From: Escherichia coli
Lineage (GTDB): Bacteria; Pseudomonadota; Gammaproteobacteria; Enterobacterales; Enterobacteriaceae
Assembly (NCBI RefSeq): GCF_003334765.1
Contig: NZ_QOWT01000016.1
Length of the DNA: 64,000 nucleotides
Reading direction: 5' to 3' (one strand)
Shown here piece by piece: positions 50,004-50,906 of this stretch. The stretch's first letter is position 1. Every line of letters starts with the position of its first letter. The translations under genes were made by a program, and so were the position numbers. The notes beneath the pieces were generated by a model. It was not told the origin of the DNA and made no database searches. It saw only the letters and a program-made list of their open reading frames with translations.

Positions 50004-50186
50004 TTAAATAAGGTTAATTACCTTATCAATCTCAGCAAGAGGTAAATTTGCCATCTCTGCAACGTCTTCCCGAGACATTCCTTTACTCAGAAGACGCTGG
50101 GCGAATTCCTGACTTACTTCCTGTCTTCCCTGCTGAATCCCCTTCTCAATCCCTTTCTCTTCAAACCACTGCGCCAGCGTCATCAT
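50004..50186 (-). CDS. Candidate intragenic small protein (60 aa) in the rpnC frame
   Basis: In-frame tandem ATG-ATG (50184-50186, 50181-50183) with Shine-Dalgarno-like GGGAGGGGAG 7 nt upstream (plus-strand ctcccctccc, 50191-50200); product MMTLAQWFEEKGIEK...VINLI. Confidence 0.35.
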   Translation of the reverse strand: MMTLAQWFEEKGIEKGIQQGRQEVSQEFAQRLLSKGMSREDVAEMANLPLAEIDKVINLI

Positions 50187-50906
50187 AGACTCCCCTCCCG
50201 TTTCCCTGTCTCTCAACACACCGTAAAACAAATCCGCTTGTTCAGTATGACCGCGTTGCAGCATATAGTTTTGCATGGCAACTAACTGACTTCCGCTAGT
50301 GTACCCTTCGTCGATCAGCGTGACCAGTTGCTCAAGCAATAACATTAAGTCGCGCTGGCGAATATGTTTTTGCAGTAGTTCGAGAATCGCAATCCGCCGA
50401 TGTTGCATGATTTCGTCATCCGGTGTGATGGTGATATCCACCAGCGGGAAAGGACTGTTATAGACGCGTCGCGCCAGCTCCGGCGAGTAAAACATATCAA
50501 ACCAGCACATTGATAGCGGATAAGGTGTGGCCTCGCCCTGATAAAACAGTATCGGCACCACCAGCGGCAGCTTATCGTGGTCAGCCTCCAGATGCCGGTG
50601 CATGGCGGCTATAGAATAACGCATCATGCGAAAGGCCATTTTCTTATCCGGCTTGCTTTGGTGTTCAATCACAACATGCAGATAACCGGGATTGCCCTGC
50701 ATTTGCACGGAATAGAGCACGTCCGTGCTGTGTCCTTTCAGGCTCTCTTCAATGAAACTCCCCGACTCTAAATGAAGCGTGTTGAGGTCACAAAGTTCGC
50801 GTAATTCCACTGGCAAATGTATCTCCAGAAAGTCGCGAGCCGTCTCCGCATGCATTAAAAATTGTTTAAATACCGCGTCATGCGGTGTGGTACTCGGTGC
50901 ATCCAT
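50004..50906 (-). CDS. rpnC: Recombination-promoting nuclease (Rpn / YhgA-like, transposase-like PD-(D/E)xK family)
   Basis: 300-aa ORF MDAPSTTPHDAVFKQFLMHAETARDFLEIHLP...; lies between panC and panD on the opposite strand. Confidence 0.85.
   Translation of the reverse strand: MDAPSTTPHDAVFKQFLMHAETARDFLEIHLPVELRELCDLNTLHLESGSFIEESLKGHSTDVLYSVQMQGNPGYLHVVIEHQSKPDKKMAFRMMRYSIAAMHRHLEADHDKLPLVVPILFYQGEATPYPLSMCWFDMFYSPELARRVYNSPFPLVDITITPDDEIMQHRRIAILELLQKHIRQRDLMLLLEQLVTLIDEGYTSGSQLVAMQNYMLQRGHTEQADLFYGVLRDRETGGESMMTLAQWFEEKGIEKGIQQGRQEVSQEFAQRLLSKGMSREDVAEMANLPLAEIDKVINLI

Follow-up and report, generated by a model that had tools for sequence, protein, structure and literature searches.

Starts of translation inside genes for Rpn nucleases are known from published work on Escherichia coli. 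Retapamulin profiling placed yadD among the genes with an in-frame internal start, and this start was found to be conserved, with conservation of synonymous sites raised locally (Meydan et al. 2019, bioRxiv 520783). According to 'Toxic antiphage defense proteins inhibited by intragenic antitoxin proteins' (Zhong et al. 2023, PNAS, PMC10400941; preprint PMC10327210), each of the five rpn genes has an internal start. RpnA was described there as forming an L2S2 complex with inhibition of the nuclease, the crystal structure of RpnA-S was solved (7TH0), RpnA-S and RpnB-S relieved growth inhibition and blocked nuclease activity, and the plasmid-encoded RpnP2 gave protection against phage. The present analysis concerns rpnC (yadD) and its internal start in a window of 64,000 nucleotides of E. 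coli K-12 (contig NZ_QOWT01000016.1, assembly GCF_003334765.1; coordinates are those of the window unless stated otherwise), in which the rpnC product is identical to that of MG1655.

For rpnC itself, Zhong et al. (PMC10400941) displayed Onc112 and retapamulin profiling tracks and detected SPA-tagged RpnC-S (the short product) and RpnC-L (the full-length protein) in MG1655 by immunoblot. The published cloning primer for RpnC-S, ggaattcaccATGATGACGCTGGCGCAG, opens with ATGATGACGCTGGCGCAG, the tandem ATG discussed below, and the reverse primer finishes at the stop codon of rpnC. The published RpnC-S is therefore exactly the 60-residue protein considered here, since the primers share its ATGATG and its stop. 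The internal start of rpnC is thus already known, found in 2019 and functionally tested in 2023. Initiation profiling and an epitope tag, among the checks proposed in an earlier sequence-only reading of this window, are covered by these published tracks and immunoblots, and the restraint of RpnC by a small internal product, which that reading had suggested, is borne out by the published effect of RpnC-S, which counters SOS induction by RpnC in a repeat-specific manner.

The internal start of rpnC

Two tandem in-frame ATG codons (50181-50186, minus strand) occupy codons 241 and 242 of rpnC (50004-50906, minus strand; an open reading frame of 300 codons), as displayed by the sequence and by comparison with alleles and paralogs. 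The first (ATG1, 50186-50184) opens a frame of 60 codons plus stop, rpnC-S (50004-50186, minus strand), in frame with rpnC and ending at the same stop codon (50006-50004), while initiation at the second (ATG2, 50183-50181) would give 59 codons. The minus-strand sequence around this site reads GGGAAACGGGAGGGGAGTCTATGATGACGCTGGCG. Both ATGs lie exactly where the sequence-only reading had placed them, and translation from ATG1 reproduces the C-terminal sequence of RpnC that it had quoted. The Shine-Dalgarno (SD) run GGGAGGGGAG it had pointed out is also present (plus-strand form CTCCCCTCCC) and is supported by pairing energy, alleles and paralogs, with a true span of 50190-50199 (minus strand), one base away from the 50191-50200 given at the time. 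A spacing of 7 nt had been claimed as well, which is right for the GGAGG core (50198-50194) relative to ATG1 and wrong for the whole purine run, which stops 3 nt before ATG1. A second GGAG (50193-50190) is located 6 nt from ATG2. As in described RpnL/RpnS pairs, the in-frame start has its own ribosome-binding site, lies some 50-60 codons ahead of the stop and sits at the edge of the variable C-terminal domain.

The strength of SD sequences was scored as the pairing of the 20 nt upstream of a start with the 3' tail of 16S rRNA (CACCUCCUUA), and the site was compared with 34 annotated genes in the surrounding 41 kb and with their 293 in-frame internal ATG codons. The duplex at the internal rpnC site reached -10.8 kcal/mol, against -5.1 at the start of rpnC itself. 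The internal pair ranked first among the 293 internal ATGs and third when the 34 annotated starts were added, behind only speE (-13.0) and yadI (-12.0). By this ranking, the statement that the site surpasses most genuine gene starts in the window holds. Across the whole window, on both strands, 5 of 2035 ATG triplets reached -10.8 kcal/mol (the starts of speE and yadI, the two rpnC ATGs, and an ATG at position 221), and the internal SD/ATG site of rpnC is confirmed as real and beyond chance. The ATG at 221 (minus strand, near the window edge and beyond the annotated 41 kb) is preceded by AAGGGGGCTGGG and scored higher than the rpnC site (-11.2); no open reading frame of at least 50 residues begins there.

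Conservation was followed in K-12 and six diverse rpnC alleles, the latter 89-95% identical over the locus. ATGATG was kept in all of them, and GGGAGGGGAG in K-12 and five of the six fetched alleles, the sixth (L004) having GGGAGGGAAG, with one G-to-A change. The 66-nt stretch at the internal start was found at 95% identity or higher in 5115 of 5426 complete E. coli genomes. The whole 1101-nt rpnC-panC locus, in which the two genes are convergent and which is 100% identical to MG1655 assemblies, was found in 5425 of these genomes, with 2176 matched records below 95% identity. Nine to ten codons past the internal start the sequence becomes hypervariable among alleles. An IS1-family transposase is annotated inside the rpnC-panC match of one genome (NZ_CM194533.1), the locus being split by the insertion.

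The other rpn genes of K-12 (rpnA, rpnB, the rpnD pseudogene and rpnE) all harbor an in-frame ATG that shares an alignment column with the internal start of rpnC, with a GGAG 6-7 nt upstream (AAGGAGAG in rpnA and in rpnE, AAGGAGAA in rpnB and AGGGAGCG in rpnD). The encoded residues at this column differ in the five paralogs (KHKESLM, QEKEKLM, QHRERIM, LQKERLM and TGGESMM). The internal SD of rpnA is weaker than that of rpnC (-8.8 vs -10.8 kcal/mol).

The full-length product is a 300-residue PD-(D/E)XK-type Rpn nuclease, labeled 'recombination-promoting nuclease RpnC' in RefSeq, where the MG1655 annotation lists no coding sequence (CDS) nested within rpnC. Pfam Transposase_31 (YhgA-like, PF04754) covers residues 7-207 (E 3e-87) and the NCBIfam Rpn family TIGR01784 matches the whole length (298 bits, cutoff 52), which gives RpnC the N-terminal PD-(D/E)XK domain of Rpn (YhgA-like) nucleases. 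Residues of the 'TDVLYSV' and 'VIEHQSK' motifs, whose catalytic role is taken from the literature, align at equal positions in RpnA, RpnB, RpnD and RpnE. At the C-terminus, the Pfam scan returned weak DUF2802 and HTH_7 matches only. PADLOC, which contains no Rpn model, gave weak C-terminal matches to RmrA and 'putative invertase' (E ~1e-4).

Internal promoter and short transcript

Starts of transcription were transferred from MG1655 through NC_000913.3, the window position being 197874 minus the MG1655 coordinate. Cappable-seq in MG1655 displayed a primary start at 147583 (+) with a score of 60.2, compared with 1.8 upstream of rpnC at 146793 (Ettwiller et al. 2016, PMC4782308, Additional file 1). 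This primary start corresponds to window position 50291 (minus strand), the 5' end of a short rpnC-S mRNA with a 105-nt leader before ATG1. Internal start sites in all rpn genes were also obtained by differential RNA-seq (Zhong et al. 2023, PMC10400941). As in RpnL/RpnS pairs, an internal promoter would thus give rise to a short transcript, more abundant than the full-length mRNA according to the published scores.

A candidate sigma-70 promoter (50298-50326, minus strand) was located with a relaxed hexamer scan, in which it matched at 8 of 12 positions (TGGTCA at 50326-50321, a 17-nt spacer, and TACACT at 50303-50298). TACACT, located from the sequence alone, predicts a start 7 nt downstream, at 50291, the very base mapped by Cappable-seq. 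Both hexamers and the start base are identical in all seven alleles, and the TGGTCA/TACACT pair appears to be the promoter of this start. Folding of the 105-nt leader gave no excess of structure over shuffled sequence (z = +1.56), as would suit a ribosome-binding site that is open. That the small product has both the stronger promoter and the stronger SD fits an antitoxin made in excess.

Repeats, second copies and predicted structure of RpnC-S

RpnC-S carries the four-residue repeats known from RpnL/RpnS pairs, here EKGI-EKGI from residue 10 to residue 17 (50136-50159, minus strand), which fall into the first predicted helix and were delimited by allele comparison. Alleles harbored either one or two EKGI units or three to six RQEV-type units. 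The repeats bear directly on function: RpnC-S was reported to block induction of dinD-lacZ by RpnC only when the number of KGIE-type repeats was equal (Zhong et al. 2023, PMC10400941).

Three other E. coli strains possessed a free-standing second rpnC-S-like gene between rpnC and panC, encoding 65-71 residues and preceded by its own SD (L002:1508-1723, L003:1484-1681 and L006:1496-1699). Such second copies have already been described (Zhong et al. 2023, PMC10400941). Their repeats show a variation of their own, with one or two FQKG units, and differ in type from those of the nested copy of the same strain. At the place of the second copy, L007, whose RpnC protein is the same as in L003, retained only a fragment, annotated as a partial transposase, and L004, with an O157-like allele, had about 220 extra bases. 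The K-12 window harbored the nested copy only. Origin of the K-12 C-terminus by fusion with a downstream copy was considered and rejected, the 3' end of K-12 rpnC resembling the internal copy of L002 (92.9%) more than the downstream copy of that strain (80.6%); this comparison supports the absence of a second copy in K-12 rather than a fusion.

A related free-standing gene, ypaA, is found downstream of rpnE in MG1655 (L010:9817-10002). It is annotated as a pseudogene in RefSeq, yet has 61 intact codons, and represents a near-copy of the C-terminal domain of RpnE with AAGGAGAG before its ATG. The tagged ypaA protein is made (Zhong et al. 2023, PMC10400941).

The region between rpnC and panC also contains a second primary start in the Cappable-seq data (MG1655 147880 (+), window 49994 on the minus strand, score 19.4; PMC4782308), 10 nt beyond the rpnC stop. 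TTGATA (50029-50024) and TAAGTT (50006-50001), separated by 17 nt, lie upstream within the last rpnC codons. A transcript begun at 49994 would first enter a hairpin (49965-49935) and beyond it be antisense to the 3' end of panC. This hairpin (TAACTGGCGCTACGGCTGATGGCGCCAGTTA, 12-bp stem, 49935-49965) is kept in the other aligned strains and looks like a terminator shared in both directions by panC and rpnC, which converge here. The hexamers are spaced by 17 nt only at the copy adjoining panC; strains that have a second copy show 11 nt at the end of rpnC. The 49994 start as the orphaned promoter of a lost downstream copy was therefore discarded, since the hexamers are 11 nt apart, not 17, where that copy is kept.

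The structure of RpnC-S was modeled with AlphaFold2 on 11 aligned sequences from alleles and paralogs, RpnA-S included. The model (mean predicted local distance difference test score 74.6) has helices at residues 4-10, 14-34, 39-45 and 50-59, the first predicted helix covering the four-residue repeats, and was scored as sharing the compact three-helix fold of RpnA-S (PDB 7TH0), with a Foldseek TM-score of 0.79 normalised to 7TH0. Searching the PDB with RpnC-S alone (phmmer) gave no match to RpnA-S at E <= 1, and a profile search reached 7TH0 solely through the RpnA-S row in its own alignment. The top matches of that profile, designed pentatricopeptide and ankyrin repeat proteins, were discarded, since they add up many weak repeat matches, no single stretch of which is significant.

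Other Foldseek neighbours were helix-turn-helix (HTH) DNA-binding domains (TrpR-like, Tn552 invertase, DeoR, Tn3 resolvase and IstA), all E-values of the search being at least 0.68 and none significant. This resemblance may only mirror how common three-helix bundles are. That RpnC-S is an HTH-type module which also binds DNA and so does more than cap the nuclease, either as a repressor of the rpnC promoters in the manner of type II antitoxins or as a competitor of RpnC-L for DNA, is unlikely. A smaller possibility is that the two ATGs yield two isoforms, of 60 and 59 residues.

A gene-within-gene toxin-antitoxin pair and its known relatives

Taken together, rpnC is with a probability of roughly 0.93 a gene-within-gene toxin-antitoxin pair, RpnC-L/RpnC-S, with the antitoxin made from an internal promoter and SD. 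RpnC-L is the PD-(D/E)XK DNA nuclease, causing DNA damage when overproduced. The separate, stronger promoter inside rpnC would yield the short mRNA from 50291, and ribosomes would bind GGGAGGGGAG on this mRNA, possibly also on the full-length mRNA, and start at the tandem ATG to produce the 60-residue RpnC-S. This small helical bundle could pair, through its long, repeat-bearing first helix, with the matching domain of RpnC-L and hold the nuclease inactive, the stronger promoter and ribosome-binding site keeping the antitoxin in excess over the toxin. Only equal repeat numbers would fit, so that alleles would be insulated from each other. By analogy with the studied homologues, we infer a physical complex of RpnC-L and RpnC-S, and the rpnC pair probably acts in phage defence, as does the plasmid homologue RpnP2.

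The purine run could also be read as a coding by-product of Thr-Gly-Gly-Glu-Ser-Met-Met, with no separate protein of consequence and at most a translational pause. Codons for Gly and Glu are rich in G and A and do produce SD-like runs within genes, values of -9 to -10 kcal/mol are found at other internal ATGs of the window, and RefSeq gives MG1655 no separate CDS here. The first rank among 293 internal ATGs, the GGAG and ATG in the same column of five paralogs despite their differing amino acids, the strong primary start site 105 nt upstream, and the published initiation profiling and tagged RpnC-S all contradict this explanation, which is extremely unlikely. A protein that is made and serves mainly as a nuclease subunit or assembly factor (like Cas11d from cas10d), or as an HTH regulator of rpnC transcription, is another reading. 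As co-expressed RpnC-S lowers rather than raises SOS induction by RpnC, and RpnA-S and RpnB-S likewise work as inhibitors, with growth inhibition relieved and nuclease activity blocked, such a role is very improbable; the HTH neighbours lend it little, because HTH domains are readily matched by three-helix bundles of 45-60 residues and no Foldseek match is significant (E >= 0.68).

Several observations weigh against the toxin-antitoxin pair or parts of it. The strict sigma-70 scan found nothing on the rpnC strand, and the -35 element TGGTCA is weak. The single Met of RpnA, RpnB, RpnD and RpnE aligns with the second rpnC ATG, which leaves the length of RpnC-S at 60 or 59 residues. DUF4351 (PF14261) gave no match in RpnC at E <= 10 in the Pfam scan; free-standing RpnS genes carry this annotation only 'in some species' (Zhong et al. 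2023, PMC10400941). BLASTP similarity between RpnC-S and RpnA-S was not significant (E 9.5), and 7TH0 ranked only 26th in the Foldseek search (E = 2). The tie to the solved RpnS structure thus consists of the position in the full-length alignment and a moderate-confidence model, because pairwise similarity is non-significant. In the part of Zhong et al. (PMC10400941) available to us, SD/ATG knock-outs concern rpnA, rpnB and a Clostridioides difficile rpn gene and not rpnC, and complex formation and phage defence were demonstrated for RpnA and RpnP2, respectively, and not for RpnC.

The locus adds nothing to the findings already published on it (Meydan et al. 2019; Zhong et al. 2023). Its value lies in the example: a nuclease whose separately made C-terminal domain is its own antitoxin shows plainly how one gene can lie within another, illustrating hidden coding capacity in bacteria with a link to phage defence. 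The functional internal start was recognised correctly from the DNA letters, at a place where the RefSeq annotation of MG1655 still has no CDS of its own.

Compared with known systems, the toxin-antitoxin pair described here and the RpnC-L/RpnC-S of Zhong et al. 2023 are the identical object, with the same gene, start (ATGATGACGCTGGCGCAG), stop and antitoxin role. RpnA-L/RpnA-S has a C-terminal sequence that diverged from that of RpnC beyond pairwise detection, and RpnC-S is 11 residues longer than RpnA-S, with EKGI repeats that K-12 RpnA-S lacks. Free-standing rpnS genes (ypaA, the second rpnC-S copy and DUF4351 proteins) encode the same domain, with a TLAQWFEEKG motif followed by four-residue repeats, and lie outside the nuclease reading frame, each with a start and an SD of its own, whereas rpnC-S of K-12 is nested. 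Type II toxin-antitoxin operons such as MazEF and RelBE likewise rely on a protein antitoxin in excess and neutralise the toxin by direct binding. Their antitoxin is encoded by a separate gene, whereas RpnC-S is the C-terminal domain of the toxin itself, produced on its own transcript by initiation inside the toxin gene.
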